Notes: generated by a model from the letters alone, not told the origin. DNA of 46,069 nucleotides from Phycisphaera mikurensis (GCA_020723465.1 DYIW01000007.1:1-46069); one strand, 5' to 3'; positions 3,901-29,090 are shown, numbered from the stretch's first letter. Numbers and translations are program-made.

Positions 3901-4360
3901 GCTGCCGCACCCCGAGCGCGACGCGCCGGAGGTGCGTCGCCTGCGGCCCAACTTCGAGACCGAGGCCGTCGCCATGCGCGTGGTCATGGAGCACGAGCGC
4001 GGCCGGGGCCGGCAGGTCTACGATGTCTCGGACCGCAACCTGGGCTACGACGTGACCAGCCTCGACCTCGCCTCGGGCGAGCTGCGGCTGATCGAGGTCA
4101 AGGGGCTCGGCGCAGCCACCGGCACCGTGCTGCTCACGCCCAACGAGCGGCGCGTCGCCGAGGACCGGCGCGACTGCTTCTGGCTCTACGTCGTGACCAA
4201 CTGCGACTCGACCCCCGTGCTCCAGGAGCCGATCCGCGATCCCGCGCGGCTCGACTGGAACGAGGTCACGAAGGTCGCGCACTACTACCTGTCGGTGGAC
4301 GCGATGACCAAGCCCATGCAGGTCCGCGAGGAGTCCCCGCCCTACGGCACCAGGAGCTGA
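926..4360 (+). CDS. SNF2/DEAH-family helicase with a C-terminal PD-(D/E)xK nuclease-like (DUF3883-like) domain.
   Basis: Motif I is LLADDAGAGKTIMAG, motif II is VIVDEAHRM and motif VI is QRMGRIHRYGQ. The C-terminus reads YDVSDRNLGYDVTSLD...LRLIEVKG...FWLYVV, a D...ExK nuclease core. GTG start at 926 is preceded by GGCGGAGG. Confidence 0.9.
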   Translation: MTVPKPLRRGQLLVGALFREAMRVETVEASGPESWTVGLVGSRSERYRKVTLTAADLAQLSILDTERSFDGDGRLVRLGLQAYALGIAFEFDPYFGLSISRVDPLPHQLEAVYDYLLKLARVRFLLADDAGAGKTIMAGLLIRELELRGLAERILIVCPANLAFQWQRELKEKFDTKFLVMKGQDLREQFGVNQWLERNRVITSLDLAKRAEILPGLRQVHWDLVIVDEAHRMSAADESHKSLRYRLGELLRDSADHMLLLTATPHKGDPQNFSLFLQLLDADAYADVKSIREAMSRRRAPFYLRRTKEAMVHFPERRGDGSWAAEPIFTKRIPHTVDFQIDGAEFDLYRDVTRFVKRESARAAAAGEDPRARAIGFLMSLYQRRLASSTFAMRRSLENRTRRLEEGLKRAQDLVRQAPPDLPDPEELEEMEEGERERLEQMLEAITLSGSAEQVRQEALELRRLADQARAVEEAGAEAKLSQLRALLHEEGFFDRPTQRLLLFTEFKDTLDYLVDRLRLWGFRVGFIHGGMKIGSRDDPGTRLHAEQQFKEGEIQVLAATEAAGEGINLQVCNILFNYDIPWNPNRLEQRMGRIHRYGQRKDCLIFNFVATNTIEGKVLQRLLLKLQEIRDALEDDAVFNVVGEVLPAAHVERVLRDYYAGRLGDADLEERLLCNVDERQFRAICQNALEGLASKKLNLEMLIERRARAQERRVVPETIARFLREAAEYVPLALKPVPSLPHAFEPARTPPALRRFEKEADWKLPALADRYPRCSTDRETAETEKLEWVTPGHPLFEAMRRHTHQRALDDLRRGAAFHSLQHEAPARLDFYRARIVDGLGQVVHERLFALEIAEQGEPRLQEPSLLGNFAPAEAPVALPAAALLPEATAWLHEHALLPFLEETRAERLAEVDRVGAHVELSLTELLQRADEEIGRAAADAEQKLPGAEGRLALAEARHGELLARRERRRADLEQQRALTLQSVERLASVLVLPHPERDAPEVRRLRPNFETEAVAMRVVMEHERGRGRQVYDVSDRNLGYDVTSLDLASGELRLIEVKGLGAATGTVLLTPNERRVAEDRRDCFWLYVVTNCDSTPVLQEPIRDPARLDWNEVTKVAHYYLSVDAMTKPMQVREESPPYGTRS

Positions 4361-4364
4361 ACCG

Positions 4365-6137
4365 ATGTCTGCAATGCGACTGACCGAAAGGGACCTTGGC
4401 CGCGAGCTCGACGAGTTCAAGGAACGCTACCCGAAGCTCTCCGACGACGAACTGTTCGTGCTCTGGTTTCTGCGCGCCTTCGTGGCCGAGGACGAGGGCT
4501 CGGCGGCATCTGCACTCTGTGGTGGCCCGCGCGACAAGGGTATCGATGCCGTCTTGATCGACGACGCTGCCCGAATCGTGTTCATGGTTCAGGGCAAGTA
4601 CCGCCACAAGGTGGCTGCGAAGGCGGAGCGTCGCGAGGACGTCACGGGGTTCGCCCAACTCGCCGCAGACCTCTGCGGAGACGGGCCCGCGTTCGTGAGC
4701 CTTTGCAAGGACCTTTCGCCGGAAGTCTCACGCCGCCTGGATGAGGCACGCACTCGCATCAGGAAGCGCGGTTATGGGTTGCATCACTACTACGTGACGC
4801 TCGGCAAGTGCAGCGGCGCGCTTCGCGACGAAGCCACACGGATCGTCCGCGCTGCCGATGCTGCAACCGTGTTCGAGATCTTTGAGGGCAAGAGGATCAT
4901 GCTGCTGCTCGCCGACTACCTCGACGGCGTCGCGCCACCCGTGCCTTCCCTGGACATCGCGATCGAATCTGGCGGCGGCGTGCGCACTGGTGGAGTCTTC
5001 AACCGGTACGACAGCAAGACCGAGATCGAGTCCTGGGCCTTCTCCATGACCAGTGCCGCGGTCGCGGACATGTACGAGCGCGCAGGCAGCCGGCTGTTCG
5101 CGCGCAACGTCCGAGGATTCCTCGGCAGCACGGAGATCAACCGGGGCATGGAAGCCACGCTGCAAAGGGAACCGGAGTACTTCTGGTACTACAACAACGG
5201 CATCACGATCATCTGCGATGACGCCAAGCAGGAGTCGAGCCGCGGCCAGCAGATCCTGCGCGTTACCAACCCGCAGGTCATCAACGGCCAGCAGACCACG
5301 AGAACGCTAGCGCGCACTGGGAGCGACGGCCAGAAGGCAAGTGTACTGGTGCGGGTCATCCGTGTGCCCCGTTCATCGCAGCGCGCGGACAACGGCTTCG
5401 AGACGCTGGTCTCGCGCATCGTATCCGCGACGAACTGGCAGAATGCGATCCGGCCGTCGGACCTGATGTCGAACGACCGGCGCCAGATCGAGATCGAGCG
5501 GCAGCTCCGAAAGCTCCACTACCTCTACTTGCGCAAGCGGATGACCAAGGGTGAGGCGCGCCGCGCGGCAGGCGCCCGACACCTTCGCCTGATCAAGAAG
5601 GAGGAACTCGCGCAGGCCGTAGCGGCTTGTGACCTGGATCCATTGGTCGTGCGCGAAGGCAAGGAGGGGCTGTTCGAGGAGCGCTGGTATGGACAGGTGT
5701 TTCCGACCGCCGATCCGAACTACTACCTCTCGCGCTACTGGCTGATGCGGGAGGTGAGCTACACCGCCCGTGGGTACCCAGAGCGAGCTTACGCCAAGTG
5801 GCTTGTCCTGAACTTCGTATGGCAGTCCCTTGATCCGTTGTGCCGCAGGCGGGCAGCGGCGACCGCGTTTCGCGAGGCGTGCGAGCGCGACACCGCGGAG
5901 CTCGTGAGTCCTTTGCTCAGAGCAATCGACGCCGCCTTCGGCGCCTCTCTGCGCTTCTACCGCGCGAACCGCGGCAGCGGTCCGACCGCGATCGACGTCT
6001 CGACCTTCTTCAAGCGCCGCAACCTCGACAAAGAGTTCGCACGCTTCTGGCGGGGTTCGCGCAACGCGTCGCGCGGGCGGTACAACCGATCTTGGGCGCG
6101 ATTCCGCAAGGTGCTCGAGGGGGAGATGAGCGCGTGA
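4365..6137 (+). CDS. AIPR-family abortive-infection protein.
   Basis: YFWYYNNGITIICDD is the AIPR hallmark. The N-terminal DKGIDAVLIDD...VFMVQGKY looks like a restriction-endonuclease-type core. The start lies 4 nt after the helicase stop. Confidence 0.8.
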   Translation: MSAMRLTERDLGRELDEFKERYPKLSDDELFVLWFLRAFVAEDEGSAASALCGGPRDKGIDAVLIDDAARIVFMVQGKYRHKVAAKAERREDVTGFAQLAADLCGDGPAFVSLCKDLSPEVSRRLDEARTRIRKRGYGLHHYYVTLGKCSGALRDEATRIVRAADAATVFEIFEGKRIMLLLADYLDGVAPPVPSLDIAIESGGGVRTGGVFNRYDSKTEIESWAFSMTSAAVADMYERAGSRLFARNVRGFLGSTEINRGMEATLQREPEYFWYYNNGITIICDDAKQESSRGQQILRVTNPQVINGQQTTRTLARTGSDGQKASVLVRVIRVPRSSQRADNGFETLVSRIVSATNWQNAIRPSDLMSNDRRQIEIERQLRKLHYLYLRKRMTKGEARRAAGARHLRLIKKEELAQAVAACDLDPLVVREGKEGLFEERWYGQVFPTADPNYYLSRYWLMREVSYTARGYPERAYAKWLVLNFVWQSLDPLCRRRAAATAFREACERDTAELVSPLLRAIDAAFGASLRFYRANRGSGPTAIDVSTFFKRRNLDKEFARFWRGSRNASRGRYNRSWARFRKVLEGEMSA

Positions 6138-6166
6138 TCGCGAAGGACTGCAAGCGTCTCGCCGAG
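6134..6166 (+). repeat. Diverged copy of the methylase 5' end. The native copy is 6523..6555.
   Basis: gtgatcgcgaaggactgcaagcgtctcgccgag versus atgatccccaaggagtgcaagcgcctggcggaa. Both are in frame and encode the same I-x-K-[DE]-C-K-R-L-A-E peptide. Confidence 0.55.
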
Positions 6167-6526
6167 TCCGTCAAGCGTCAGGCGCGCCTGCCGCAGCCGG
6201 ACCGGCGGCGGATTCGGGAGGACCTGAGCGAGGTGGAGCAGGCGCTCTTGAAGCACGTGGCGGCGGAGGGCCGGGTGACCCGCGCCCAGCTCGTGGCGGC
6301 CTACGATCTCAGCGCGGATCAGGCCAAGCGGCTGCTCGCCGGGCTGGTGGAGCGCGGCCTGCTCGAACGTCGGGGCGAGGGGCGAGGCGCCCACTACGAG
6401 ACCGCCCGAAAAAAACGGGCGGTCGCCCGATCTATTGGGCGAGCGCCCATTTCAGGCGCCAAACCGCCCAATCCCGGTAGGAAAGCCCGGGGACCGAGTC
6501 GGAAGGGCAAGAAGGGGGCCCGATGA
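6134..6526 (+). CDS. Small winged-helix DNA-binding protein with a basic tail. Its first ~11 codons duplicate the methylase N-terminus.
   Basis: GTG 6134 overlaps the AIPR stop (GTGA) and the stop overlaps the methylase ATG (ATGA). RVTRAQLVAAYDLSADQAKRLLAGLVERGLLERRGEGRGAHYE is a typical wHTH. VIAKDCKRLAE compares with methylase MIPKECKRLAE. Confidence 0.55.
   Translation: MIAKDCKRLAESVKRQARLPQPDRRRIREDLSEVEQALLKHVAAEGRVTRAQLVAAYDLSADQAKRLLAGLVERGLLERRGEGRGAHYETARKKRAVARSIGRAPISGAKPPNPGRKARGPSRKGKKGAR
6401..6472. repeat. Nested inverted repeats around an A7 tract inside the 3' end of the wHTH ORF, 50-120 nt upstream of the methylase ATG.
   Basis: ACCGCCCG(6401-08)-AAAAAAA-CGGGCGGT(6416-23). 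There is an alternative CGGGCG(6416-21)/CGCCCG(6424-29) pairing. ATTGGGCG(6434-41) pairs with CGCCCAAT(6465-72), enclosing GCGCC(6443-47)/GGCGC(6455-59). The repeats are directly visible; their function is unknown. Confidence 0.5.
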
Positions 6527-9500
6527 TCCCCAAGGAGTGCAAGCGCCTGGCGGAAGTGGACTTTCCGATCGCCGAGGTGAGCCGGCACGCGGCGCGGGAG
6601 AAGTCGATCCGGCACGGGCATCCGAGCACGCTGCACCTCTGGTGGGCGCGGCGGCCGCTGGCATCGTGCCGTGCGGTGCTGCTGGCGCTCTTGTGGCCGG
6701 ACCCGTGCGATCCGCTCTGCCCGGCGGAGTTCAAGAGAGAGGCGCGGAAGCGCCTGCGCGAGGTCGGCGGCTGCAACCCGGGCAGCACGGACCAGGACCT
6801 GCGCCGCGCGCTGCTGCGCTTCATCGCGGACTTCGCGAACTGGGACAACGCGGCGCAGCCGACCTATCTCGAGGTGAGCCGGGCGCTGGTCAAGGCGGCG
6901 CACGCGCCCGCGGACGGCGGCCCGTACGAGCCGCCGCTGGTGGTGGATCCCTTCGCGGGCGGCGGCTCGATCCCGCTCGAAGCGCTGCGCGTCGGCTGCG
7001 AGGCGTTCGCGAGCGACCTGAACCCGGTCGCGTGCCTGATCCTCAAGGTGATGCTCGAGGACATCCCGCGCCACGGGCCGAAGCTCGCCGAGGACCTGCG
7101 CCGCGCCGGCGCGGAGATCAAGGCGCAGGCCGAGAAGGAGCTCGCCGACCTCTACCCCAGGGACCCGGACGGCGCCACGCCGATCGCCTACCTGTGGGCG
7201 CGCACCGTGCGCTGCGAGGCGCCGAACTGCGGCGCCGAGATCCCGCTGGCGCGCTCCTTCTGGCTGTGCAAGAAGAGCAACCGCCGCCGGGCGCTCCGCA
7301 CGCGCGTCGAACGGCCCGAGGAAGGGCCGCCGCGCGTGGAGTTCGAGGTCTTCGTGCCGAAGAGCGAGAAGGAGGTCCAGGGCGGCACCGTGGCGCGCGC
7401 CAAGGCGAGCTGCCTGGCTTGCGGCGCGGTGCTGCCGCCGGACCGCGTGCGCGCGCAGCTCGCCGCTGAGCGCGGCGGCGCGGACGTGGTGTTCGACGAG
7501 AAGGGCCGGCGAACCGGCGGGGCGCGGCTGCTGGCGGTGGTGACGCTCCGGCCCGGCGAGACCGGGCGGCACTACCGGCTCCCGGTCGATCGCGACGACC
7601 AGGCGGTGCGCCGGGCGCAGGCGCGGCTGGCGAAGCTGCTGGGCGACTGGGAGCGCGGCGGGAAGCAGGGGCTCTGCCCGGTGCCGGATGAGCCGACGCC
7701 GCCGATCGGGACGCTGGGTTTCCGAGTGCAGCGCTACGGCATGCTGCAGTGGGGCGACCTGTTCACGGCGAGGCAGAAGGTGGCGCTCCGAACCATCGCG
7801 GCTGCGGCGCGTGATCGACCGCAGTCGGGAGACGATGCGATTCGAACGACGATGGCAATGGTAGTTGGCCGGTGCGCGGACTACTCAAGCTCGATCGTCA
7901 GCTGGGCCCAGTCCGGAGAGTTCGTGCGGAGCACGTTCGGCCGCCAAGCGTTGCCGATCGTGTGGGATTTCGCGGAAGCGGTTCCGTGGTCGGACTCGTC
8001 TGGGAACCTGGACGGCGCCATCGACTGGACGTCCCGGGTCATCGAGCAGTGGCCGGGTTCAAAGGCCGGGCAGATCCAACCTGCTGACGCCACGGAGCAC
8101 CCTTTGCCGGACGACACGGCGCATCTCTGGTTCACCGACCCGCCGTACTACGACGCGGTCCCATACGCCGATCTCTCTGACTACTTCCTCGTCTGGCTCA
8201 AGCGCGCACTGCCGGGCCACCCGTTGCTCTGCGACCCCTTCGATCCGTCGGACCCTCTCGCGCCCAAGGCCCGCGAGGCGGTGCAGGACGAGACCAAGCA
8301 GCACGACGGTCGGTCCAAGGACCGTTCGTGGTTCGAGGAGACGATGGCCAAAACCTTCGCCGAGGGACGCCGCGTGCTGCACGAGGACGGAGTCGGCTCC
8401 GTGGTCTTCGCGCACAAGACCACGGAAGGTTGGGAAGCGCTCCTATCCGGGATGATCCGTGGCGGCTGGACGATCACCGGCTCGTGGCCGATCGCCACGG
8501 AGCGCCCCGGTCGTCTGCGCTCGCAGGATTCCGCCGCCCTCGCCACCAGCGTCCACCTCATCTGCCGCCCGCGGCCCGACGACGCCGGCGTGGGCGATTG
8601 GGCGGACGTGCTGCGCGAGCTGCCGGCGCGCGTCAGCGGGTGGATGGAGCGCCTGCAGGGGGAGGGCGTGCGCGGCGCGGACCTCGTGTTCGCCTGCATC
8701 GGTCCGGCGCTCGAGATCTTCAGCCGCTACGCCAGGGTCGAGACCGCCGAGGGGCGCGAGGTCAAGCTCGACGAGTATCTCGCCAAGGTCTGGGAGGTGG
8801 TCGGCCGGAGCGCTCTCGCGCAGGTGCTCGGCACGGCCGAGGCCGGGGTTCGGAACGGCGCGGGCGGCGCGGTCGAGGAAGACGCCCGGCTTACCGCGCT
8901 CTTCCTGTGGACGCTCCAGGCCACGGGCAACGGGACGGGGGCCGACAGGAGCGGCGACGAGGAAGGCGGCGAGGAGGCCGAAGAGGAAGAGGACGAGGAA
9001 GGCACGTCGCGCGGCAAGGCCAGGGGCTACGCGCTCGTGTTCGACGTGGTGCGGCGCTTCGCCCAGCCGCTCGGCATCGATCTGCCGAAGTGGGAGGCCC
9101 GAGTGATCGAGACCAAGAAGGGCGTGGTGCGCCTGCTCTCCGTGGCGGAGCGCGCGAGGCAGCTCTTCGGCGAGGAGGGAGCGGGCGCCGTGGCCGCGCG
9201 CCTGGAGCAGGCGGCGCCGGCCGGCCCGAACCCGCTGCAGGGCCTGCTCTTCCCCGAGGTGGAGGCCGCGCCGAGGGTCCGCGGCCGCGGCGCGCGCGGC
9301 CGCGGCGGGCGTCTCGCGGGCGGCGAGGTCTCGGACGAGGCCCTGGCCGCCGCGGGCGAGGCCACCACCCTCGACCGGGTCCACGCCGCCATGCTGCTCC
9401 AGGCCGGCGGCCGCACCAACGCCCTGCGCGCGCTGCTCAGGGCCGAGCAGGACCGCGGCCCGGACTTCCTGCGCCTCGCCAACGCTCTCTCCGCGCTCTA

Positions 9501-9561
9501 CCCTAAGGACAGCGAGGAGAAGCGCCTGCTCGACGCGATGCTCCTGGGGGTGCCGAGATGA
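6523..9561 (+). CDS. DUF1156-type (COG1743-like) N6-adenine/N4-cytosine DNA methyltransferase.
   Basis: The N-terminus [45 protein letters not shown] is the DUF1156 signature. The SAM motif is [15 protein letters not shown] and the catalytic motif is FTDPPYYD. There is an acidic linker and a helical C-terminal module. Confidence 0.9.
   Translation: [1012 protein letters not shown]
9358..9561 (+). repeat. Methylase 3'-end repeat, copy A. This is the native copy and forms the last 67 codons plus stop of the methylase.
   Basis: It aligns without gaps to 13248..13451. My hand count gives roughly 23 mismatches over 204 nt. Its last ~64 nt also align to 11898..11961. Confidence 0.85.
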
Positions 9562-10763
9562 TCAGCATGGACCCGATGATCCGCAGTCTCGTGTTGAAGC
9601 GATTCCGTAGTGTTCCCACGGCGCGCATCGAGTTCGACAATCCCACGATCTTCGTCGGCCGCAATGGTTCGGGGAAGAGTAACCTGGTTAGCGCGTTTTC
9701 ATTCCTCGCGGAAGCGATGGCCTCGCCGCTCCAGGCGGTCTTCGACCGAGCCGGCGGCATCTCCGCCGTTCGCAATCGATCTTCGGGTCGGAGCTATCCC
9801 CCGCATCTCGGCATGCGCGTCGACTTCGCGCACCTGAACGGAGAGGCGCGCCACGGCTTCTACGCCTTCGAGGTCAAGGCCCTCAAGAACTACGGGTTCT
9901 CCGTGGTGCGCGAGCAGTGCTCCATCGGAGAGCAATCGTCGCGCGCCTGGTTCGATCGCGTCGAGAACCGATTCAGCTCGAACATCGCGGGGCTGAAGCC
10001 GGCCCTCGACGCGGCCGCGCTCGGCCTGCCGGTGATCGGAGGGGAAGAGAGGTTCGCGCCGGTGCTGCGTGCGCTGGCCGGTCTGCGCGTTTATTCCATC
10101 GAACCGGGCAAGCTCCGCGACATGCAGGAGCCCGACAGTGGCGTCGCGCTGAAGCCAGATGGCGCCAACGTCACGAGCGTCCTCAAGGAGATCGAGCGGC
10201 AGTCCGCCGACGACTTCACCCGCATCTCCGAGATCCTCGCCACCATCGTCCCGAACACGAAGGGCGTGCGGGTACAGAAGCACGGCAAGAACCTCGCGCT
10301 CCAGTTCACCCAGGAATGGGGTGACCGGAAGCCGAAGCGCCTCAACTTCGAGGGGTTCAGCATGTCCGATGGCACGCTGCGCGCCATCGGGCTCCTGGCG
10401 GCCGTGTTCCAGAGACCGCGGCCGTGTCTGATCGCGGTCGAGGAACCTGAAGCGACTATCCATCCGGGGGCGCTCGAATCCGTCCTCGACCTGCTCCTCT
10501 ACGCGAGCAGGCACATGCAGGTCGTGGTGACGACGCACAGCCCGGACTTGCTCGATGCAAAGTGGATCACGGATCGGCATCTCCGGCTCGTGGAGTGGAG
10601 GGAGGGCGCGTCACACGTCGCGGCTGTATCGGACGCGAACCGGGAGGCCCTGCAGCGGCACCTCATGGGTGCGGGGGAGCTGCTCCGCGCGAACGCGCTG
10701 GAGCCCGGACCTCTCTTCGATGAGAGGATCGACACGGACCTTCTCTTCGAGGATCTGCGATGA
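9558..10763 (+). CDS. ABC/SMC-like AAA ATPase (AAA_15/AAA_21 type), the ATPase of cassette 1.
   Basis: Walker A is FVGRNGSGKSN, the signature-like motif is MSDGTLRAIGLL, Walker B is IAVEEPEATIHP and the H-loop is VVVTTHSPDLLD. ATG 9558 overlaps the methylase stop (ATGA). Alternative ATGs lie at 9567 and 9576. Confidence 0.85.
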   Translation: MISMDPMIRSLVLKRFRSVPTARIEFDNPTIFVGRNGSGKSNLVSAFSFLAEAMASPLQAVFDRAGGISAVRNRSSGRSYPPHLGMRVDFAHLNGEARHGFYAFEVKALKNYGFSVVREQCSIGEQSSRAWFDRVENRFSSNIAGLKPALDAAALGLPVIGGEERFAPVLRALAGLRVYSIEPGKLRDMQEPDSGVALKPDGANVTSVLKEIERQSADDFTRISEILATIVPNTKGVRVQKHGKNLALQFTQEWGDRKPKRLNFEGFSMSDGTLRAIGLLAAVFQRPRPCLIAVEEPEATIHPGALESVLDLLLYASRHMQVVVTTHSPDLLDAKWITDRHLRLVEWREGASHVAAVSDANREALQRHLMGAGELLRANALEPGPLFDERIDTDLLFEDLR

Positions 10764-11383
10764 TCGTGCAGCCGATCGTCGAAGGTCAGGGCGACGTGGC
10801 GGCTGCTCCGGTCCTCCTGCGGCGTCTGGCCGAGGAGGCGCAGGCGTGGAATGTCCGGGTCGCGCGGCCGCATCGGCGCAGGCGGACGCAGCTCGTGCGC
10901 AGGGACGGCCTGCAGGACGCCGTGCGCGTGGCGCGGTTGACGCCAGGCTGCAGCGCCATCCTGATTCTTTTCGACGCGGACGACGACTGCCCGAAGCGGC
11001 TGGCTCCCACGCTCGCGGCCTGGGCGCAGGAAGCAGCGGACCCGATTCCGAGCGCCATCGTCATGGCCAACCGCGAGTACGAGGCCTGGCTGCTCGGCGC
11101 GGTCGAATCGCTTCGGGGCAGCGCCGGCATTCGTACCGACGCGGAGGCGCATGCCGACCCGGAAGCTGCGCGCGACGCCAAGGGGGAGTTGGAGCGCCGG
11201 TTGCTTCCTGGCGCCAACTATCTGCCGACAGCGGATCAGGCCCGGTTGACGGCCCAGATCGATTTGGCGACGGCGTACCGCTCCTGCCGGAGCTTCCGCA
11301 AACTGGTGGGGGCGTTCGGCGCCTTCCTGTCCACCGGCGGCGTGAGGCCACCGGAGTGGCCGCCGGCAACGTGGGGGCAGTGA
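10760..11383 (+). CDS. DUF4276-family protein (TOPRIM-like putative nuclease), partner of the cassette 1 ATPase.
   Basis: MIVQPIVEGQGD, ILILFDADDDCP and NREYEAWLLG match the three conserved blocks I associate with DUF4276. The ATGA overlap with the ATPase stop indicates coupling. Confidence 0.7.
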   Translation: MIVQPIVEGQGDVAAAPVLLRRLAEEAQAWNVRVARPHRRRRTQLVRRDGLQDAVRVARLTPGCSAILILFDADDDCPKRLAPTLAAWAQEAADPIPSAIVMANREYEAWLLGAVESLRGSAGIRTDAEAHADPEAARDAKGELERRLLPGANYLPTADQARLTAQIDLATAYRSCRSFRKLVGAFGAFLSTGGVRPPEWPPATWGQ

Positions 11384-11384
11384 T

Positions 11385-11795
11385 ATGACGGGCGTGGTCT
11401 GGCAGATCTCCGGAGGGCCGGCCTCGCGGTCCTACGCCGAGGTGTTCCTGAAGCACGGGGTCGCCTTGATCGGCCCGGGAGACGCCGGCCCGTGGACGCC
11501 CGAGCGGGACGACACCGCGTTCGACGGCAGCTTCGTCCGGCGCTTCGCCAGCGAGGTCCTGGCCGGGGACCTGGTCCTGCTGCGCTCTGGGCTCGCCACG
11601 GTCGCCGCCGTAGGTCTCGTGGGTGGCGGCTACCAGTACCTGAACGCGTTCGACGACGTGAACGGCTGGGACCTCCACCACGCCCGGCGAGTGCGCTGGT
11701 GCCGGCTCGACCAGCCGCATGCCTTCGCCGGGTCGGTCTTCGGCGCCAACCCGCAGCCGGCCGCCGGCCTGTTTGCGCGCGTGCGGAGACCGTAG
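11385..11795 (+). CDS. Hypothetical 136-aa protein, third gene of cassette 1. It may have a PUA/EVE-like fold.
   Basis: ATG lies 1 nt after the DUF4276 stop. Composition is non-shadow. The pattern GVALIGPGD...GDLVLL....VAAVGLV.GGYQY...........HHARRVRW resembles small PUA/EVE-type reader domains, but this is only a weak by-eye resemblance. Confidence 0.5.
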   Translation: MTGVVWQISGGPASRSYAEVFLKHGVALIGPGDAGPWTPERDDTAFDGSFVRRFASEVLAGDLVLLRSGLATVAAVGLVGGGYQYLNAFDDVNGWDLHHARRVRWCRLDQPHAFAGSVFGANPQPAAGLFARVRRP

Positions 11796-11805
11796 GAGGA
11801 TCGCG

Positions 11806-11961
11806 ATGGAACCCTGGTACAAGGTCGCCGAGCCCCGCAAGGAGGTCCGCGAGGGCCGCTCGTTCAACCCGGGCGAGTTCGCCATGCCGGCAGCACTTCT
11901 CCGTAGGGACAGCGCGGAGAAGAGCCTGCTCGACGCGATGCTCCTGGCGGTGCCGCGGTGA
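11806..11961 (+). pseudogene. Recombination scar. A 51-codon chimeric ORF joins the DUF499 RBS and first ~26 codons to the last ~20 codons of the methylase.
   Basis: MEPWYKVAEPRKEVREGRSFNPGEFA compares with DUF499 MEPWYKVATPRKEVREGRSFNPDEFA. ...[14 protein letters not shown] compares with methylase ...[14 protein letters not shown]. The RBS GGAGGA is retained upstream. Confidence 0.75.
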
Positions 11962-11971
11962 GGAGAGTCCG

Positions 11972-13207
11972 ATGCTGAAGAAGCTGACCACCCAGGGATT
12001 CAAGTACCTCGCGGACGTGAGTGTCGAGTTCCCGCGCATGGCCGTGCTGTTCGGTCCGAATGCGGCCGGCAAGAGCAACCTGCTGGACGCGATCCAGGCG
12101 CTCTCGCGGATCGGCACCGAGCGCACGCTGGCTGACGCGCTCGCCGATCCGATCCGGGGACGTCAGATCGAGGCCTTCCTCTTCCCCGCCGACGGGCTTC
12201 CGGCGCTGCTGGCCGCGCCGTCGGCCAAGTTCTCGCTCGAAGCGGACGTGACGCGGGCAAGTGTTTGCTACCGGTACCGCGTCGAAGTGGCGATCTCGCC
12301 CGCTTCCGGCGCCTTGTCCGTGGCCGACGAGTACCTGGCGGCGCTGGCAAGGGATGGCACGCCCAAGCCACCGGCCGCGATCGAGAAGGTCGAGGGTAGT
12401 CTCCGGCTGCGACGGAAGGGGGATTCCGGCAGACCGCACTACGAGCCTCTGGGCTTGAACTACGCGCACCTCTCCGACGCTCGGCTGGCGGGGCCGCTGT
12501 ATCGAGCGATCGAGGCCGTCCGGTCCGAGCTCTCCGACTGGCGCACCTACTACCTGGACCCGCGCGTCGCCATGCGGTCGGCGCAGCCGCCTTCCGACGT
12601 GCGAGACATCGGCGTGCTCGGCAGCGACATCGCGCCCTTCCTCTATCGACTCCAGGCGGAGCACCCGAAGCTCTTCGCCGCCGTGTCCCGCACCCTGCGC
12701 TCGATCGTGCCGAGCGTCCAGGAGCTGACGGTCGATCTGGACAAGCGGCGCGGCACGCTCGACATCCTCATCCGCCAGGCCGGCGTCGACTGCTCCTCCC
12801 GCATCGTCTCGGAGGGGACGCTGCGCGTGCTGGCGCTCTGCGCCATCGCCGTGAATCCCTGGGGAGGCTCGCTGCTCGCCTTCGAGGAGCCCGAGAACGG
12901 GGTGCACCCGCGCCGGCTCGAGTTGATCGCCCAGCTCCTGCTCTCGCTGGCGCTGGACCAGGGACGCCAGGTCGTCGTCACCACGCACTCGCCGCTTTTC
13001 TGCGACGCGGTGCTGAAGGGCTCGCGGGCGCGAACCGAGGACGTCGGGCTGTTCAACGTGCGGCGCGATGGCGCCGCCACGATCGTCAGCGCTTTCGACG
13101 TGTGCGGGCCGCTGTTCAAGGACCAGGAGATCACACGGGCACTGACCGCCGGCACCGAGGATGGCCTGTTCGAGAGCCTGCTCTTGCGGGGGCTGCTCGA
13201 TGAGTGA
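11972..13207 (+). CDS. ABC/SMC-like AAA ATPase, a paralog of the cassette 1 ATPase. This is the orphan ATPase of cassette 2.
   Basis: MLKKLTTQGFKYL...LFGPNAAGKSN is Walker A, SEGTLRVLALCA the signature-like motif, LAFEEPENGVHP Walker B and VVVTTHSPLFCD the H-loop. ATG 11972 is preceded by GGAGAG, 10 nt after the scar stop. The track ORF start at 11492 is a shadow extension. Confidence 0.85.
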   Translation: MLKKLTTQGFKYLADVSVEFPRMAVLFGPNAAGKSNLLDAIQALSRIGTERTLADALADPIRGRQIEAFLFPADGLPALLAAPSAKFSLEADVTRASVCYRYRVEVAISPASGALSVADEYLAALARDGTPKPPAAIEKVEGSLRLRRKGDSGRPHYEPLGLNYAHLSDARLAGPLYRAIEAVRSELSDWRTYYLDPRVAMRSAQPPSDVRDIGVLGSDIAPFLYRLQAEHPKLFAAVSRTLRSIVPSVQELTVDLDKRRGTLDILIRQAGVDCSSRIVSEGTLRVLALCAIAVNPWGGSLLAFEEPENGVHPRRLELIAQLLLSLALDQGRQVVVTTHSPLFCDAVLKGSRARTEDVGLFNVRRDGAATIVSAFDVCGPLFKDQEITRALTAGTEDGLFESLLLRGLLDE

Positions 13208-13451
13208 CGCCTTCGCCGTCGATCTCTTCGTCGAGGACCGCGCGCACGAGGCCACCACCCTCGACCGGGTCCACGCCGCTATGCTGCTCCAGGCGGGCGG
13301 CCGCACCAGCGCGCTCAGGGCGCTCGTCAGGGCCGAGCAGGAGCGCGGCCCGGACTTCCTGCGCCTCGCCAACGCCCTGTCGGCCCTCTACCCCCGGGGC
13401 AGCGAGGAGAAGCGCCTGCTGGACGCGATGCTCCTGGCGATGCCGAGGTGA
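13200..13451 (+). pseudogene. Chimeric 83-codon ORF. Its 16 N-terminal codons resemble a TOPRIM/DUF4276-like gene start and are fused to a copy of the last 67 methylase codons.
   Basis: ATG 13200 overlaps the ATPase-2 stop (ATGAGTGA). MSDAFAVDLFVEDRAH is followed by [67 protein letters not shown]. The stop overlaps the next start (GTGA). Confidence 0.65.
13248..13451 (+). repeat. Methylase 3'-end repeat, copy C.
   Basis: Gap-free alignment to 9358..9561. Most differences are synonymous, for example CGC to AGG for Arg and CTG to CTC for Leu. Confidence 0.85.
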
Positions 13452-15133
13452 CGATGATCCGACGCGTAGTGATCAAGAACTTCAAGCGCTTCACGGAGCA
13501 GACGTTCGACCTGGCGGACTCGATCGTCCTCGCGGGTCCGAACAACGCCGGGAAGTCGACTCTCTTGCAGGCGATCGCGACCTGGAAGCTCGGCCTCGAG
13601 CGATGGATCGCACAACGCCAGGGGAGCAAGGCCGTGAAGCGCTCCGGCGTCGCCATCACCCGAGCAGACTTCACCGCGGTGCCGCTGCGGGAGATGAACC
13701 TCCTTTGGGAGGATCGGCGTGTCTCTGGAGACGGCGAGAGGCCGGGGACGCCGCGCTTGATCGAGATCGTGCTGCAGGGCGAAACCGGCGGAACGTCGTG
13801 GACCTGCGGCCTCGAGCTCCAGTATCAGGGCCCCGAGCAGGTCTACGTCCGCCCGCAGGGCGCGAAGACCCTCGACCAGGACGCGATCCGCGCGTTCCCT
13901 GCCGAGGCAGCCAGAAGCCTCGAGATCGTGCACGTTCCGCCGCTCTCCGGGATCGAGCGTGACGAGCCGCGGCGCGACCGCGGCATGCAGGACCTGCTCG
14001 TCGGCCAGGGACGCCCCGGCGAAATCCTCCGCAACCTGCTGTGGGAGATCGCGCAGAACCTCAAGGAAGACTGGCAGGCCATGGCCGGGCACCTCCGCGA
14101 GCTATTCCGGATCAAGGTGCTCGAACCCTCCTACTCGCGCACCCAACCATTCATCGTTTGCGAGTACCGGGAGCCAGGCCACGAACGGCCGCTCGATCTG
14201 TCCAACGCGGGGAGCGGCACGCTCCAGGTGCTCCTGCTGCTCGCGTTCCTCTACGCCCGGCCGGCGAGCGTCATCCTGCTCGACGAGCCCGACGCGCACC
14301 AGCACGTCATTCTGCAGAAGCAGGTATACGAGCTGATCCGCAAGGTCGCGCGCGAGCGCGGCGGCCAGGTGATCATGGCGACTCATTCGGAGGTCGTCCT
14401 GGATGCGACGGAGCCGAGCCGCGTGCTCGGCTTCTTCGGTGCGGCTCCGCGCGCGCTCGGCAGCGAGACCGAGCGCGATCGGCTGCGAGAAGCGCTGAAG
14501 CGCGTCACGACCACCGACCTCCTGCTGGGGCAGGACGTCGGCGCCGTGCTCTACGTCGAGGGCGAAAGCGACGAGAAGATCCTGCGCGAGTGGGCCCGCA
14601 TCCTCGAACACCGGGCGAGGCGGTTTCTCGACCGGCCGTTCGTCCACTGGCTGGGTGGCAGGAGCCTGCGCGAGGCGAAGGCGCACTTCTTCGCCATTCG
14701 GGCGGCCTTTCCGGCGATCCGCGGTCTCTGTCTGCTCGACGGCGACAATCGGGACGAACCGGACGAGGAAACGGCACACGCCGGCCTGATCGTCCTGCGC
14801 TGGCGGCGCTACGAGATCGAGAACTACCTGCTGCAGCCTGCGGCCATCAAGCGCTTCGTCTTCCCTGACTTCCCGCTGCTCGAGCCGCGCGTGGACGAGG
14901 AGTTCTGGAAGCAGGTGCCGCGAGGAGCTGACCTCTTGGGCGAGCACGTCTCGTTGGTTCGCATCAAGGGGAGCGACGAGTTCCTCGTGCCCTTGTTCGA
15001 GGCTCTGGAGCGGCCCACGCCCAAGAAGGACCTCTATCTGCTGGCGGCGAGGATGGAACGAAGCGAGATCCATCCGGAGGTCAGGGAGAAGCTCGACCGC
15101 ATCGCCGAAGTCCTGTGTCCGGATGAGCACTGA
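13448..15133 (+). CDS. Fused ABC ATPase and DUF4435/TOPRIM protein, an OLD-family / single-polypeptide PARIS (AriA-AriB)-like defence protein.
   Basis: Walker A is LAGPNNAGKST, Walker B is ILLDEPDAHQH and the H-loop is VIMATHSEVVLD. The C-terminal blocks LYVEGESDEKIL, WLGGRS, CLLDGDNRDEPD and RYEIENYLL are DUF4435/TOPRIM blocks. The start is GTG 13448 or ATG 13454. Confidence 0.8.
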   Translation: MTMIRRVVIKNFKRFTEQTFDLADSIVLAGPNNAGKSTLLQAIATWKLGLERWIAQRQGSKAVKRSGVAITRADFTAVPLREMNLLWEDRRVSGDGERPGTPRLIEIVLQGETGGTSWTCGLELQYQGPEQVYVRPQGAKTLDQDAIRAFPAEAARSLEIVHVPPLSGIERDEPRRDRGMQDLLVGQGRPGEILRNLLWEIAQNLKEDWQAMAGHLRELFRIKVLEPSYSRTQPFIVCEYREPGHERPLDLSNAGSGTLQVLLLLAFLYARPASVILLDEPDAHQHVILQKQVYELIRKVARERGGQVIMATHSEVVLDATEPSRVLGFFGAAPRALGSETERDRLREALKRVTTTDLLLGQDVGAVLYVEGESDEKILREWARILEHRARRFLDRPFVHWLGGRSLREAKAHFFAIRAAFPAIRGLCLLDGDNRDEPDEETAHAGLIVLRWRRYEIENYLLQPAAIKRFVFPDFPLLEPRVDEEFWKQVPRGADLLGEHVSLVRIKGSDEFLVPLFEALERPTPKKDLYLLAARMERSEIHPEVREKLDRIAEVLCPDEH

Positions 15134-15141
15134 GGAGGCGA

Positions 15142-17898
15142 ATGGAACCCTGGTACAAGGTGGCGACGCCGCGCAAGGAGGTCCGCGAGGGCCGCTCCTT
15201 CAACCCGGACGAGTTTGCCATCGCCCTCGAGCAAGTGAAGGCGGGAACGGCGCCCGAGGACTACCGCGAGCCCAAGCAGTTCTTCGCCAGGACCTGCTTC
15301 ACGCGGGCGCTCCGCGAGCACGCGGGCATGGTGCTGCGCAGGCTCAGCGGCCGGACCGAGAACACCGCGCCGGTGCTGACCCTCATCACGCAGTTCGGCG
15401 GCGGCAAGACGCACACCTTGACGGCGCTCTACCACCTGGCGAATCAGGGCGACGCGGTCTCCGGCGACCCCGGGGTGGCTGCGCTCTTGCGCGAGGCCGA
15501 CCTGGCAACCGTCCCGAAGGCGAAGGTGGCGGTGTTCGTGGGCAACGCCTGGGATCCGCGCGACGGCCGCGAGACGCCCTGGATCGACGTCGCGCGCCAG
15601 CTCGCCGAAGACAAGGGCGTGGATGCACTGGGGCCTTCGGCGAAGACCACGCCTCCGGGCACCGAGGCGATCGCGCGCGTCTTCCAGGCGGCCGATGCGC
15701 CCGTCCTGCTGCTTTTCGACGAGGTGCTGAACTACCTCAACCGGCACCGCAAGAGCGCTGATTCGTTCCACGCCTTCATCCAGAACCTGACGGTCGCCAC
15801 CACCGGCACGACCCACGGCGCGTGCGTGGTCAGCCTGCCGCGCAGCCAGGTGGAGATGACCGAGTGGGACCAGGAGTGGCAGGACCGGATCTCCAAGGTG
15901 GTGCGGCGCGTGGCCAAGGACCTGATCGCCAACGACGAGACTGAAATCAGCGAGGTGGTGCGGCGGCGGCTGTTCCAGGACCTGGGCAGCGAGAAGGTCC
16001 GCCGCAACGTGGCGCGGCAATTCGGCGACTGGTGCTTCGAGCGGCGCGCGCAGCTTCCGCCGGAGTGGACCGCGGTGGACTCGGCGGCGACCGAGGCCAA
16101 GGCGCGCGAGTTCCTGCAGCGCCGCTTCGAGGCCTGCTACCCGTTCCATCCGGCGACGCTGTCGGTCTTCCAGCGCAAGTGGCAGTCGCTGCCGCAGTAC
16201 CAGCAGACGCGCGGGACGCTGGCGATGCTGGCGCAGTGGGTCTCGCTGGCCGCGCAGGACGCGTTCACGAAGGCGCGCACCGAGCCGCTGATCACGCTCG
16301 GCTCGGCGCCGCTCGGCGAGCCGGGCTTTCGCAGCGTGGTGCTCGGGCAGCTCGGCGAGTCGCGGCTCATCGCGGCGATCGACACGGACATCGCCGGCGA
16401 ACAGGCCCACGCTCGCGCGCTCGACGCCGACAGCAAGGGGCCGCTCCGCGACATCCACCGGCGGGTCGGCAGCACGATCCTGTTCGAGTCGTCCGGCGGC
16501 CAGACGGCGAAGGTGGCGCACCTGCCGGAGCTGCGCTTCGCGCTGGGCGAGCCCGAGATGGACACGACTTCGATCGACAGCGCTGCGCTCGCCCTCGAGG
16601 AACGCTCCTACTTCGTGCGCAAGGCGGGAACCGACGGCTTCCGCATCGGCTACCAGCCGACGATGAAGAAGGTGGTGAGCGACCGGCGGGCGTCGCTCGA
16701 CGACGAGACGGAGATCAAGCCGGCGCTGCGCAAGCTGGTGGAGGACGAGTTTCGCCGGGGCGCGAGCATCCCGGTGGTGCCTTTCCCCAGCGAGGGCGCC
16801 GAGATCCCGGATACGCCGAGGCTCACGCTGGTGGTGGCCGATCCGGAGCGGGAGTGGTCCGGCGCGGGCCCGCTGCGCCAGGAGATTGCCGGCTGGACGA
16901 GGAGCCGCGGGAGGTCGCCACGGCTCTATCCCGGCGCGCTCGTGTGGTGCCTGAAGAAGCCGGGCCGGGACCTGCGCGAGAAGGTCGAGCTCGCGCTCGC
17001 CTGGAGGCGGGTCTCGCGCGAGGTGGCGGACGGCACGCTTGGCGGCGAGTTCGACCGGAACGACCGGGCAGAGCTGCAGGCGAAGCTCAAGGACGCCGAG
17101 CAGGGCGCCAAGGACGAGGTCTGGGGCGACTACCGCTTCGCGCTGCTCGCGGACGCCCAGGAGCCGGATGGCCTGAAGGTCATCGACCTGGGCGCGGGGC
17201 ACTCCTCCAGCGGCGAGACCCTGTGCGGGCGCGTCATCGCGGCGCTCAAGTCCGAGGCGCTGCTCAACGAGTCCGCCGGCGCCGGGTACCTCGAGCGCAA
17301 CTGGCCGCCGGCGCTGAAGGAGTCGGGCGCCTGGCCGCTCGCGAGCCTGCGGCAGAGCTTCCTCAACGGAGCCCTGACGCGGCTTGTCGATCCCGATGCC
17401 ACTCTCAAGTCCAAGATCGTGGAGTTCGTCACGCGTGGCGAGTTCGGCCTGGCTTCGGGCAAGAAGGCGGACGGCAGCTACGAGCGCACGTGGTTCCAGG
17501 AACTTGTTGCTACTGACGAGGTCGCCTTCGAGTCGGACGTCTTCTTGCTCAGGAAGTCGAAGGCGGAGGCCCTGAAGGCAGAGAAGCCGGCGAAGCCCGC
17601 GCCGCCTCTACCGCCTGGGGCCGTTCCCACGCCGCCGGTCGGGCCGGGTCCCACGCCTGTGATCCAGCCAAAGCCGGTGGCGGCGACGCGGACGCTGCGC
17701 CTCTCGGGCAGCGTCCCGCCTGAGATCTGGAACCGCCTCGGCACCAAGATCCTGCCCAAGCTGCGCTCGGGCACGGATCTCAGGATCGGGGTGGAGCTCG
17801 TGGTCACCGTGCCCGAAGGCTCCGCCAGCGGGCTCGCAGACGAGCTTCGGCAGATTCTGCAGGAGCTTGGCCTCGGCCAGGCCGTGTCGATCCAGTGA
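15142..17898 (+). CDS. DUF499-type (COG1483-like) P-loop ATPase.
   Basis: The characteristic N-terminus is MEPWYKVATPRKEVREGRSFNPDEFAIALEQV. Walker A is TQFGGGKTHTL and Walker B is VLLLFDEV. RBS GGAGG lies 6 nt upstream. Confidence 0.9.
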   Translation: MEPWYKVATPRKEVREGRSFNPDEFAIALEQVKAGTAPEDYREPKQFFARTCFTRALREHAGMVLRRLSGRTENTAPVLTLITQFGGGKTHTLTALYHLANQGDAVSGDPGVAALLREADLATVPKAKVAVFVGNAWDPRDGRETPWIDVARQLAEDKGVDALGPSAKTTPPGTEAIARVFQAADAPVLLLFDEVLNYLNRHRKSADSFHAFIQNLTVATTGTTHGACVVSLPRSQVEMTEWDQEWQDRISKVVRRVAKDLIANDETEISEVVRRRLFQDLGSEKVRRNVARQFGDWCFERRAQLPPEWTAVDSAATEAKAREFLQRRFEACYPFHPATLSVFQRKWQSLPQYQQTRGTLAMLAQWVSLAAQDAFTKARTEPLITLGSAPLGEPGFRSVVLGQLGESRLIAAIDTDIAGEQAHARALDADSKGPLRDIHRRVGSTILFESSGGQTAKVAHLPELRFALGEPEMDTTSIDSAALALEERSYFVRKAGTDGFRIGYQPTMKKVVSDRRASLDDETEIKPALRKLVEDEFRRGASIPVVPFPSEGAEIPDTPRLTLVVADPEREWSGAGPLRQEIAGWTRSRGRSPRLYPGALVWCLKKPGRDLREKVELALAWRRVSREVADGTLGGEFDRNDRAELQAKLKDAEQGAKDEVWGDYRFALLADAQEPDGLKVIDLGAGHSSSGETLCGRVIAALKSEALLNESAGAGYLERNWPPALKESGAWPLASLRQSFLNGALTRLVDPDATLKSKIVEFVTRGEFGLASGKKADGSYERTWFQELVATDEVAFESDVFLLRKSKAEALKAEKPAKPAPPLPPGAVPTPPVGPGPTPVIQPKPVAATRTLRLSGSVPPEIWNRLGTKILPKLRSGTDLRIGVELVVTVPEGSASGLADELRQILQELGLGQAVSIQ

Positions 17899-26164: not shown

Positions 26165-26479
26165 GGGAGACGCCTCCGTCTAGGATCGACCGAGCATCCG
26201 GGGCGGGTGGTTCGACTCCGCTGGAGGCGAGCCGTGGTCGCATGCAGATGCTTCCAGCCCCTCCCCTATCGGCGATCGCCGGCCCTCGCTTTGAGGCGAG
26301 CCGCGCCTGGCGACAGAAAGGGGAGCGGCGGAACCTCGGCCTTGGGCCGAGGGAGGGGGCGATTTCGTTGCGGCGTGGGGAAATACGCGCATGAGCGTTC
26401 TCGCGGCACCTGCGTCACCGGCGCCGCGTTCTTCGTGTTGCGTCTCTGCTCTTCAGGATTCTTCTGCGGAGGATTCACC

Positions 26480-27712: not shown

Positions 27713-27839
27713 GGCGACGCGGGCGCGCACGGAGGCGCCTCTCGATACGTGAAGGGTCCCCTCGCCCGCTTCCCCTGGGCGAGGGGCGCCGGTGGTGCTA
27801 TCGGTGCGCACGTCAGGTCTTCTCCGAGGAGGATTCGCC

Positions 27840-29072: not shown

Positions 29073-29090
29073 GGTCGCCTCCGCGGCGTA

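Follow-up and report, generated by a model that had tools for sequence, protein, structure and literature searches.

Fragments of core genes between embedded cassettes of an Hma defence locus, and their probable origin by recombinational stacking

How do defence genes come to lie inside the operon of another defence system, and, where several are stacked, why should pieces of the host operon's own genes lie between them? The question is raised by a 46,069-nucleotide stretch of DNA from Phycisphaera mikurensis (GCA_020723465.1, DYIW01000007.1:1-46069; "the window" hereafter means this whole stretch at its full length). Its locus is named, from PADLOC and Pfam matches, as an Hma anti-phage system, and between two of the core genes, the methyltransferase gene HmaB and the ATPase gene HmaC, cassette genes are separated by fragments of the HmaB 3' end and the HmaC 5' end, here called scars. 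The answer proposed, with a probability of roughly 0.78, is that this junction accumulated cassettes from at least three Hma loci by recombination, through a stacking mechanism set out below.

Embedding as such is documented. Of the 1485 Hma systems surveyed by Payne et al. (2024, bioRxiv 10.1101/2024.01.29.577857), 62.7% had genes embedded between hma genes; the embedded genes were co-oriented 96.7% of the time, and ABC-ATPase modules (HEC-01 to HEC-04; HEC, Hma-embedded candidate) were the commonest family. They showed that many BREX, DISARM and type I restriction-modification systems also nest defence genes, used this for "guilt-by-embedding" discovery, and leave the origin of embedding open, offering the idea of a "genomic sink" that needs further exploration; "recombination", "truncat", "remnant" and "homologous" occur zero times in their text. 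Their pipeline took at most three genes per gap and removed pseudogene-bearing loci, limits that would filter out arrays like the one in the window. Hma is called "type-1 BREX-related, DUF499-centred" in a paper that lists embedded backup effectors and mentions neither recombination nor cassettes (NAR 2026, PMC12839542).

Repeated gene ends between HmaB and HmaC

The two core genes and everything between them read as follows (ORF, open reading frame; aa, amino acids).

6523..9561, + strand: HmaB, a DUF1156 N6-adenine methyltransferase; left core gene of the slot
9558..11383, + strand: cassette 1, an intact HEC-01 pair (ABC ATPase 9558-10763; DUF4276, TOPRIM-like, 10760-11383)
11385..11795, + strand: F3 remnant of 136 codons; family F3 (about 320 aa, a single-gene cassette) with an in-frame internal deletion
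11806..11961, + strand: joint ORF J, 51 codons; the first 27 or so HmaC codons (11806-11886), the last 23 or so HmaB codons (11890-11958) and a stop
11972..13207, + strand: cassette 2, ATPase2; a full-length ABC ATPase related to HEC-01A, an orphan (PADLOC HEC-01A 6.8e-53)
13200..13451, + strand: stub ORF, 83 codons; F5 codons 1-17 joined to the last 69 HmaB codons (13245-13448)
13454..15133, + strand: cassette 3, one 559-aa ABC ATPase whose C-terminal region is TOPRIM-like (OLD/PARIS-like)
15142..17898, + strand: HmaC, a DUF499 ATPase; right core gene of the slot

The repeated ends were called by a repeat search and by self-BLASTN of the whole 46-kb window. The longest pair, 9351-9561 and 13241-13451, is 88.6% identical over 211 nt, ungapped (E 9e-74). 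Positions 11806-11885 match 15142-15221 at 90% over 80 nt (E 2e-24), 9501-9561 match 11901-11961 at 88.5% over 61 nt (E 4e-15), and 11906-11975 match 13396-13465 at 84% over 70 nt (E 1e-14). Composition does not account for the similarity: apart from these copies, the 46 kb contain one significant repeat, an unrelated pair of 1.28 kb at 26453-29074. Both searches recovered the very repeats that the original prediction, made from the sequence alone, had described, and its hand counts of about 23 mismatches in 204 nt and about 9 in 80 nt compare with exact counts of 22/204 and 8/80 (10/64 for the short copy). All copies are in frame, and each stop overlaps the next start or falls at most 10 nt 5' of it: HmaB and cassette 1 overlap as ATGA at 9558/9561, J ends at 11961 with the next ATG at 11972, ATPase2 and the stub ORF overlap as ATGAGTGA at 13200/13207, and the stub ORF stops at 13451 with the next ATG at 13454.

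Both parents of the scars are well defined. HmaB matches Pfam DUF1156 (3.1e-22) and PADLOC HmaB (1.6e-121), and its last 69 codons (9352-9558, residues 944-1012), the HmaB tail, form a discrete conserved module after a variable Arg/Gly-rich linker, of which residues 901-930 are only 38% conserved; the tail itself has 79-96% amino-acid identity in 80 genomes of many phyla. HmaC matches Pfam DUF499 (3e-13) and PADLOC HmaC (1.2e-92), and its first 30 residues are 91% conserved (71 loci). Within J, hidden Markov model (HMM) scans find HmaC head residues 1-27 with an independent E-value (iE) of 1e-14 and HmaB tail residues 47-69 with iE 2.9e-5, together with a weak PADLOC HmaC match; in the stub ORF, HmaB tail residues 2-69 are found with iE 6e-42.

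The cassettes themselves can be assigned by comparison with related loci, cited here by L number. Cassette 1 matches PADLOC HEC-01A (1.3e-106) and HEC-01B (9.2e-64) and Pfam DUF4276 (5.6e-17). The small ORF that follows it, formerly counted as part of cassette 1, is instead what is left of another cassette, one that has a single gene: its residues 5-123 can be aligned with the N-terminal parts of F3 proteins of 320 aa (12 loci), and codons 1 to about 122 are fused in frame to the last 11 or so. Window positions 11755-11829 run colinear and ungapped with L070 and L011, through the last 50 nt or so of F3 and the spacer into the start of HmaC, and the HmaC head at 11806-11886 is thus the original right flank of the F3 cassette. 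In L013, HEC-01 is followed by a differently deleted F3 remnant and then by HmaC; the block HmaB, HEC-01, F3, HmaC is therefore older than both loci.

ATPase2 matches homologues in L075, L011, L041, L046, L056 and L094 over its whole length (1-411; 62-78% identity). In L075, L056, L041 and L094 it is followed by an intact partner of about 200 aa, family F5, which is frameshifted in L011 and L046. F5 is weakly DUF4276-like (Pfam 6.5e-6, below the cut-off), and the window's second HEC-01 is incomplete, with the ATPase2 partner reduced to 17 codons fused to the HmaB tail: the stub ORF begins with MSDAFAVDLFVEDRAHE, as F5 N-termini do, and intact F5 in L056 and L011 goes on as EFLK.

Cassette 3 matches Pfam AAA_21 and AAA_15 and PADLOC AriAB (2.5e-21, reaching residue 466), NsnB, GajA and Old; no HEC-04 model is among the best 25 PADLOC matches listed. 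Its C-terminus reads YVEGESDE ... LDGD, with a faint Pfam DUF4435 match (E 0.12). Comparison by hhalign with the DUF4276 and F5 alignments was not significant, a PDB sequence search matched the OLD N-terminus only, and a single-sequence AlphaFold2 model (pLDDT 33) was unusable, which leaves the motifs and the AriAB match as the whole basis for the designation TOPRIM-like.

The array is thus a series of three blocks, each keeping native flanks from its source locus. Block 1 consists of HmaB, HEC-01, the internally deleted F3 and HmaC codons 1 to about 27; block 2 of the last 23 or so HmaB codons, ATPase2 and F5 codons 1-17; and block 3 of the last 69 HmaB codons, the ATPase with the TOPRIM-like C-terminus, and HmaC. 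J is the border of blocks 1 and 2, and the stub ORF that of blocks 2 and 3. The layout of three cassettes given in the original prediction accordingly becomes one of four remnants, two of them degraded (F3 by internal deletion, ATPase2 by the loss of all but 17 codons of its partner).

The junction and its scars in related loci

When one genome per species was searched with the 69-residue HmaB tail, 80 loci were recovered; Gammaproteobacteria, Binatia, Nitrospirota, Planctomycetota, Chloroflexota, Bacillota, Bacteroidota and Spirochaetia are among the groups represented. The whole HmaB and HmaC proteins are 65-90% identical across very distant phyla, which indicates extensive recent horizontal spread of this Hma subfamily.

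Both anchors are present in 71 loci. The slot, taken as the distance between HmaB stop and HmaC start, is 8 to 7034 nt long in these and essentially empty in 11; that of the window, at 5580 nt, is the third largest. Slot contents include DUF433 with DUF5615, MNT with HEPN, ABC ATPase with PIN, DUF6978 with DUF1828/1829 (PDC-M24), and F3, the last standing alone in six loci with slots of 981-989 nt; genes like those of reverse transcriptases (YVDDF) and TIR proteins (DVVISFAGEDR) were called by motif reading alone. That the junction is a variable cassette slot, as had been proposed, is borne out by this span of lengths and of unrelated gene sets. The further expectation that each cassette of the window would occur singly in relatives was also realised: L021, L024 and L013 have HEC-01 as their sole intact cassette (66-77% amino-acid identity; the pair is also present on the short contig L017), ATPase2 with F5 occurs in L075 and L056, and a cassette 3 homologue is the first gene 3' of HmaB in L014 (80% identity). 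Cassette 3 homologues occur in L046 and L073 as well, and the HmaB sequence ahead of genes of this type amounts to 69 tail codons in the window, about 8 codons in L073 and the whole gene in L014. L014 also has a gene like PRiA4_ORF3 (plasmid pRiA4b ORF-3) at 8865-9422, between the cassette 3 homologue and HmaC, which the window does not have.

Profile HMMs of the HmaB tail and HmaC head were run against six-frame translations of all slots. Scar fragments lie on the coding strand only and occur in seven of the ten largest slots (window, L041, L019, L010, L073, L074 and L060); L041 has two joints, and the HmaC-head part in L060 was recognised only by eye. Joints of the J type are present in L019, L010, L041, L060, L085, L088, L089, L092 and L098, and an HmaB tail fragment precedes a retained module, as in the window, in L041, L019, L010, L060, L073, L074 and L094.

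Two wider searches extended this list. A degenerate DNA pattern (the HmaC WYKVA motif, 80-110 nt, the HmaB LDAM motif) applied to metagenome contigs gave four true J joints, three of them distinct, and four chance matches. Five joint ORFs were made into a profile, and its search of 5.8 billion proteins recovered about 56 distinct 90%-identity clusters of HmaC-head/HmaB-tail fusion ORFs, 40-91 aa long and with at least 25 breakpoint geometries, among which the classes C29/B47, C30/B28-29 (a 72-aa class of about 10 clusters) and C26/B30 recur. Two of three joint contexts inspected lie between cassettes within the DUF1156...DUF499 slot: L092-L094, which include a closed 5.2 Mb genome, have ATPase with DUF4276, then J, then ATPase2 with F5, and L098 has DUF1828/1829, then J, then two DUF433 genes with DUF5615. 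The third context, in L095, retains of HmaB only an N-terminal fragment of 44 aa. Further debris in L094 comprises a piece of an HmaB tail, the 3' part of an ATPase gene and an internal piece of HmaC. The idea that HmaB-tail fragments are common as separate genes was rejected, as short matches are mostly contig-end or frameshifted HmaB pieces (for instance L001).

Several of these loci show other rearrangements. In L002 (9390-11853) and L003 (5269-6859), a SNF2 helicase fragment is followed immediately by a 97-aa ORF that ends in the HmaB tail, and then by HmaC; they appear to be a degraded Hma locus from which most of HmaA and HmaB was deleted and in which the tail and the HmaC start were kept. 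ORFs resembling insertion sequences lie within some slots or core genes. L019 has an IS256-like ORF at 10852-12114, by motif reading alone. In L060 (about 11756-13708) ATPase2 is split at codon 30-34 or so by an insertion of about 1.95 kb, and in L093 (11720-13204) HmaC is interrupted by a minus-strand ORF. In L092 and L094 (886-4176) HmaB has an extra GIY-YIG nuclease domain (1096 aa), and a GH130-like gene lies 3' of HmaC as in the window.

Recurrence of this kind bears on two alternatives. The fusion ORFs might be functional and under selection, either as translational couplers that would keep ribosomes on a polycistronic mRNA or as free HmaB-tail peptides that would regulate HmaC or the cassette ATPases or dock onto them. 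Both window ORFs are intact, each with a Shine-Dalgarno sequence and a stop near or overlapping the next start; some 56 J clusters are in frame, one 72-aa class accounting for about 10; and the HmaB tail is a discrete module with high conservation across phyla. On the other hand, scars in other loci show decay: the frame is interrupted by stops in L019 and L089 and shifted in L041b and L074, and the scars of L010 and L060 are heavily degraded. The many geometries yield products of such different lengths that no constant part remains beyond the two ends, an open frame of 51 or 83 codons is unremarkable at 70% G+C, and a protein search returns in-frame ORFs only, so that their abundance is an ascertainment effect. 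A functional role is therefore quite improbable. The claim that coupling is preserved at each junction stands for the window as a description of frames and spacing, but fails as a general selected feature; intact frames and tight spacing are best read as recent history plus high G+C rather than as selection for coupling.

The second alternative is that the array is an assembly artefact, a chimeric contig built across conserved Hma sequences of several metagenome strains. HmaB and HmaC ends share 85-94% nucleotide identity between organisms, enough to confuse assemblers, and many public HmaB tail fragments lie at contig ends. However, the copies in the window differ by 10-24%, too much for repeat collapse; the fusions occur at new positions (HmaC codon 27 to HmaB about 990; F5 codon 17 to HmaB 945) instead of as homologous switches; and G+C is flat, at about 0.70, across the array region. 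The same architecture is found in independent assemblies labelled complete or Mb-scale, including L074 (OZ253547.1), L073, L060 and the closed L094. An artefact is hardly credible on these grounds.

Joints, origin of the scars and a proposed mechanism

The joints show how the fragments met. The F5/HmaB joint of the stub ORF falls at CGAGG (13246-13250), which is common to both parents, with 8 of 10 nt shared. For joints between HmaC and HmaB, one short patch in the HmaB tail is of particular relevance.

9475..9489, + strand: A-x-A-L patch, CTCGCCAACGCTCTC, in the HmaB tail; encodes L-A-N-A-L, nt -84 to -70

The patch resembles HmaC nt 73-87 (15214-15228, TTTGCCATCGCCCTC, F-A-I-A-L). The match is 11/15 nt in the window and averages 9.6/15 over 70 loci, reaching 13/15, and the median number of 15-mer pairs that outscore it is 16.5 of 32038. 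Several independent J joints cross over within it. The fresh joints of L085 (EKFA/NALSALYPK) and L088 (EFAIAL/SALYPK) resolve at its two ends, those of L019 and L010 at the next GCNCTC, nine bases further, and the long joint of L041 switches at REH/AAM, where HmaB reads RVH/AAM. A single microhomology patch for all joints was considered and rejected, given the number of geometries and the other 15-mer pairs that score equally in many loci. As separate observations, HmaB tail codons 22-28 and 43-49 (about 9415-9435 and 9478-9498) form an internal repeat, (T/A)-N-A-L-(R/S)-A-L, and the joint classes C29/B47, C29/B50 and C30/B28 map to A-L motifs of the HmaB tail and HmaC head.

Judged by these sequences, the joints bear the signature of illegitimate joining guided by microhomology (about 5-15 nt) beside real homology. 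The hallmark of homology-facilitated illegitimate recombination is present in CGAGG, in the A-x-A-L patch of L085 and L088 and in GCNCTC of L019, with parents inferred from homologues. The joints that build the array are not homologous docking events, as the original prediction would have it; they are illegitimate and scattered over at least 25 geometries. Nor do the gene ends stand out as docking sequences. A special conservation of the slot borders was looked for and discarded: at the nucleotide level they are not more conserved than other conserved parts of HmaB and HmaC, several internal segments being equally conserved, and the loci had been selected by tail similarity. Nothing indicates that the ends evolved as docking sites.

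Heterogeneous breakpoints also argue against a site-specific enzyme. According to that alternative, the cassettes were placed by site-specific or transposon insertion, which would have left the repeated gene ends as target duplications or used them as attachment sites. The cassettes are indeed co-oriented and tightly packed as in integrons, and transposase-like ORFs occur in some slots (the IS256-like ORF of L019, read from motifs, and L060 and L093). Yet Pfam scans of 29 window ORFs gave no integrase, transposase or recombinase domain, tRNA and Rfam scans of the window gave no match, and the repeat search found no inverted repeats at cassette borders. The repeats, moreover, consist of diverged coding sequence 60-211 nt long, and are thus unlike target duplications, which are short and identical. 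Such insertion is very improbable, and the claim of an integrase-free array holds for the window; the homologous exchange in core genes that was to build it would, for its part, be a deduction from the scars.

Were the fragments made at home? Between the long HmaB tail copy (13242-13448) and the resident tail, 13.5 synonymous changes and 10.5 nonsynonymous ones were counted (ratio of nonsynonymous to synonymous rates, dN/dS, 0.25; Fisher p = 9e-4), and the HmaC head fragment of the window has a dN/dS of 0.18. The short tail copy (11899-11958), with 2 synonymous and 7 nonsynonymous changes (ratio about 1.2), is uninformative, so that the reported excess of synonymous differences extends to the first two copies and not to the third. 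Pooled over ten scars of five genomes, the proportions of synonymous (pS) and nonsynonymous (pN) sites that differ from the resident genes are 0.515 and 0.121 (Fisher p = 1.7e-37). The two halves of the L041 joint are 66-73% identical to the resident genes, with pS of 0.73-0.87, near saturation, and rank 47th and 3rd of 70 in similarity to their own genes. The window's two HmaB tail copies are 89% identical, which is as far apart as the resident tail and HmaB of another phylum (L005 89.0%, L021 89.6%). A duplicate decaying in situ would show pN close to pS; with pS far above pN, most of the divergence arose while both sequences sat in working genes, and the scars were imported. Substitution patterns thus support a foreign origin of the repeated ends, and import of the copies from other homologous systems, as foreseen, is upheld by the pooled scars and the L041 ranks.

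The corresponding alternative is duplication in situ, by unequal crossing-over or slippage at the HmaB-tail/HmaC-head patches, which would yield a J joint built from the genome's own sequence, with later replacement of one cassette copy by homologous exchange. It gains from the A-x-A-L patch, which is in the best 0.05% of HmaC-head/HmaB-tail 15-mer matches and within which several joints resolve, and from the window's scars, which are nearest the window's own HmaB and HmaC (ranks 1, 1 and 3 of 70). The pS and pN values weigh against in-place decay, as does one half of the L041 joint, which is as distant from the resident genes as from random loci (66%, rank 47/70, pS 0.87). The same cassette on both sides of J was seen in 0 of 71 loci, and the joint at 13200-13451 involves a cassette gene, not HmaC. 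Duplication in situ is accordingly unlikely. Attempts to trace the window's scars to a donor lineage by nucleotide identity were uninformative: the own genes are closest and the next-best matches are scattered.

The stacking of imported cassettes could have proceeded as follows. In this Hma subfamily the gap between the HmaB stop codon and the HmaC start codon is precisely where a cassette sits. Once DNA of another Hma locus enters the cell, the conserved coding sequence of HmaB, of HmaC or of both would provide homology for recombination, presumably of the RecA type as the anchoring crossover. A double homologous crossover would swap cassettes without a trace. In a one-sided homologous event, the other DNA end would be joined illegitimately at a few bases of microhomology, the incoming cassette would be added beside the resident one, and the truncated flank that it brought along would persist as a scar. 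Three equivalent routes may lead there: homology-facilitated illegitimate recombination of linear DNA, integration of a circle closed at microhomology, or unequal crossing-over. One outcome would be HmaC-head/HmaB-tail joints between cassettes, such as 11806-11961, and another would be joints of a cassette gene to an HmaB tail, such as 13200-13451. Blocks could then be inherited or transferred as units while redundant members decay, as F3 and the lost ATPase2 partner may have done in the window; the order of these events is likewise a proposal, and the three routes give the same product.

Several observations weigh against this account. The closeness of the window's scars to its own genes is what an in-situ origin would also give; related donors, shared codon usage or gene conversion could produce it too. 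The crossover of the window's J is blurred by divergence at 11886-11905, though it lies at the same place as the patch, and the parents used for the microhomology calls are homologues, not true donors. Same-species structural variants are lacking: an exact look-up of the window's HmaC gave no match, and the closest of more than 5500 homologues (E <= 1e-50) is only 85-86% identical, so that no gain or loss event was observed directly. In a linkage-decay test, loci that share a cassette were not more alike in the adjacent HmaB 3' and HmaC 5' DNA (0-4 percentage points in every interval, no trend with distance from the slot), and the hitch-hiking signal expected of homologous exchange was thus not detected. 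Saturation between phyla may hide such a signal. The result shows that cassette type is uncoupled from core-gene phylogeny, without a tract signature, and it neither supports nor refutes homologous exchange. Finally, some cassette borders are scar-free, in L046, L036 and L011 as well as at the DUF4276/F3 border of the window (11383/11385), where a hidden scar was searched for and not found; a scar-free route therefore also exists.

A bolder and distinctly tentative extension, doubtful as it stands, is that the HmaB tail and HmaC head, with their 85-94% nucleotide identity between phyla, serve across many phyla as universal homology arms of a recombinase-free platform for exchange and stacking, their joints being reused in an attC-like manner. 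If so, each joint would be a new pair of arms for further insertion, for excision as a circle that carries the joint, and for shuffling, and through the A-x-A-L patches that both genes contain joints would form repeatedly and not just by accident. Embedding in BREX, DISARM and type I restriction-modification operons might be explained in the same way.

Surroundings, meaning and known systems

The rest of the Hma operon lies directly upstream.

926..4360, + strand: HmaA, a SNF2/DEAD helicase with NOV_C; first Hma core gene
4365..6137, + strand: AIPR/AbiU-like gene (Pfam AIPR 1.5e-42; PADLOC AbiU 6.7e-41)
6140..6526, + strand: small winged-helix protein, directly 5' of HmaB; start codon uncertain

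HmaA matches PADLOC HmaA (1.4e-172) and Pfam SNF2-rel_dom, Helicase_C and NOV_C; the winged-helix protein has weak Pfam matches (HVO_A0261_N 2.9e-5, MarR_2 2.3e-4). Every gene from 926 to 17898 is on the + strand, so that HmaA, HmaB and HmaC are co-oriented. The AIPR/AbiU-like abortive-infection gene lies between HmaA and the winged-helix gene, so that the operon has another junction that is filled; self-BLAST found no flank-gene fragments around it (4365-6137). The DNA 3' of HmaC is ordinary chromosome, with CBM9, GH130, saccharopine dehydrogenase, agmatine deiminase-like and LanC-like genes. Further on, 26453-27714 and 27813-29074 are tandem paralogous stretches (78.7% identity over 1278 nt), covered by ORFs of about 420-470 aa that have no Pfam match and are apparently unrelated to the Hma locus.

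For one system, the scars give a first sequence-level answer on how embedding arises: cassettes travel with flanking core-gene ends from other Hma loci and are stacked by one-sided joins, of which one side is microhomologous and the other would be homologous. In practical terms, HmaC-head/HmaB-tail joints are natural delimiters for cutting long slots into cassettes, including slots that pipelines exclude. The account also points to array members that are expected to be dead, for example the orphan ATPase2 and the F3 gene with its deletion, and a search for scars is a template for other embedded systems.

The nearest known relatives are the Hma-embedded cassettes themselves (Payne et al. 2021, PADLOC; Payne et al. 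2024). The host is the same, with SNF2 helicase, DUF1156 methylase and DUF499 ATPase; the embedded defence genes are likewise co-oriented between hma genes; and cassette 1 is HEC-01 itself. With a variable slot already published in this form, the slot is not new. The papers, however, catalogue embedded content, whereas scars of core-gene ends and J joints are the feature of the window. In the literature that could be searched, no description of core-gene fragments between embedded cassettes was found, and the bipartite scars, their wide recurrence and their bearing on mechanism are probably an undescribed footprint of recombinational stacking.

A second parallel is provided by the sequential-displacement arrays of polymorphic toxin loci, those of Rhs/CdiA and of type VI secretion (T6SS). 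"Orphan" C-terminal modules of Rhs and CdiA proteins were reportedly described by Jackson in 2009, Poole in 2011 and Koskiniemi in 2014. For the effector-immunity arrays with orphan immunity genes of the Vibrio cholerae T6SS, homologous and homology-facilitated illegitimate recombination have been invoked (PMC8189183, citing Kirchberger 2017). In these arrays, as proposed for the window, modules arrive by recombination in a conserved flank, there is no dedicated recombinase, and a fragment of the conserved gene is kept downstream with the old module, as are the HmaB tails at 11890-11958 and 13245-13448. Their variable module is the 3' end of the conserved gene together with an immunity gene, so that the scar comes from one gene, whereas the cassettes of the window are autonomous operons that begin after the HmaB stop and end before the HmaC start. 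Since they sit between two different conserved genes, the scars are bipartite (HmaC head/HmaB tail) or join a cassette gene to an HmaB tail. The window's scars are thus a useful variant of such arrays.

Integrons likewise stack co-oriented, promoter-less-looking cassettes at one site with a recognisable delimiter. In contrast to them, the window has no IntI match in the 29 ORFs scanned and, by the repeat search, no attC hairpins or inverted repeats at cassette borders, and its delimiters are decaying coding fragments with many breakpoints, which points to general or illegitimate rather than site-specific recombination. The defence hotspots of mobile elements (NAR 2026, PMC13586616) are alike in the rapid exchange of unrelated systems between conserved flanks, in the suspicion of recombination and in small remnants that could not be recognised. 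They differ in being located on mobile elements and in that no recognisable remnants of the flank genes are reported from them, whereas the host in the window is a chromosomal defence operon in which identifiable flank remnants reveal the chemistry of the junctions.

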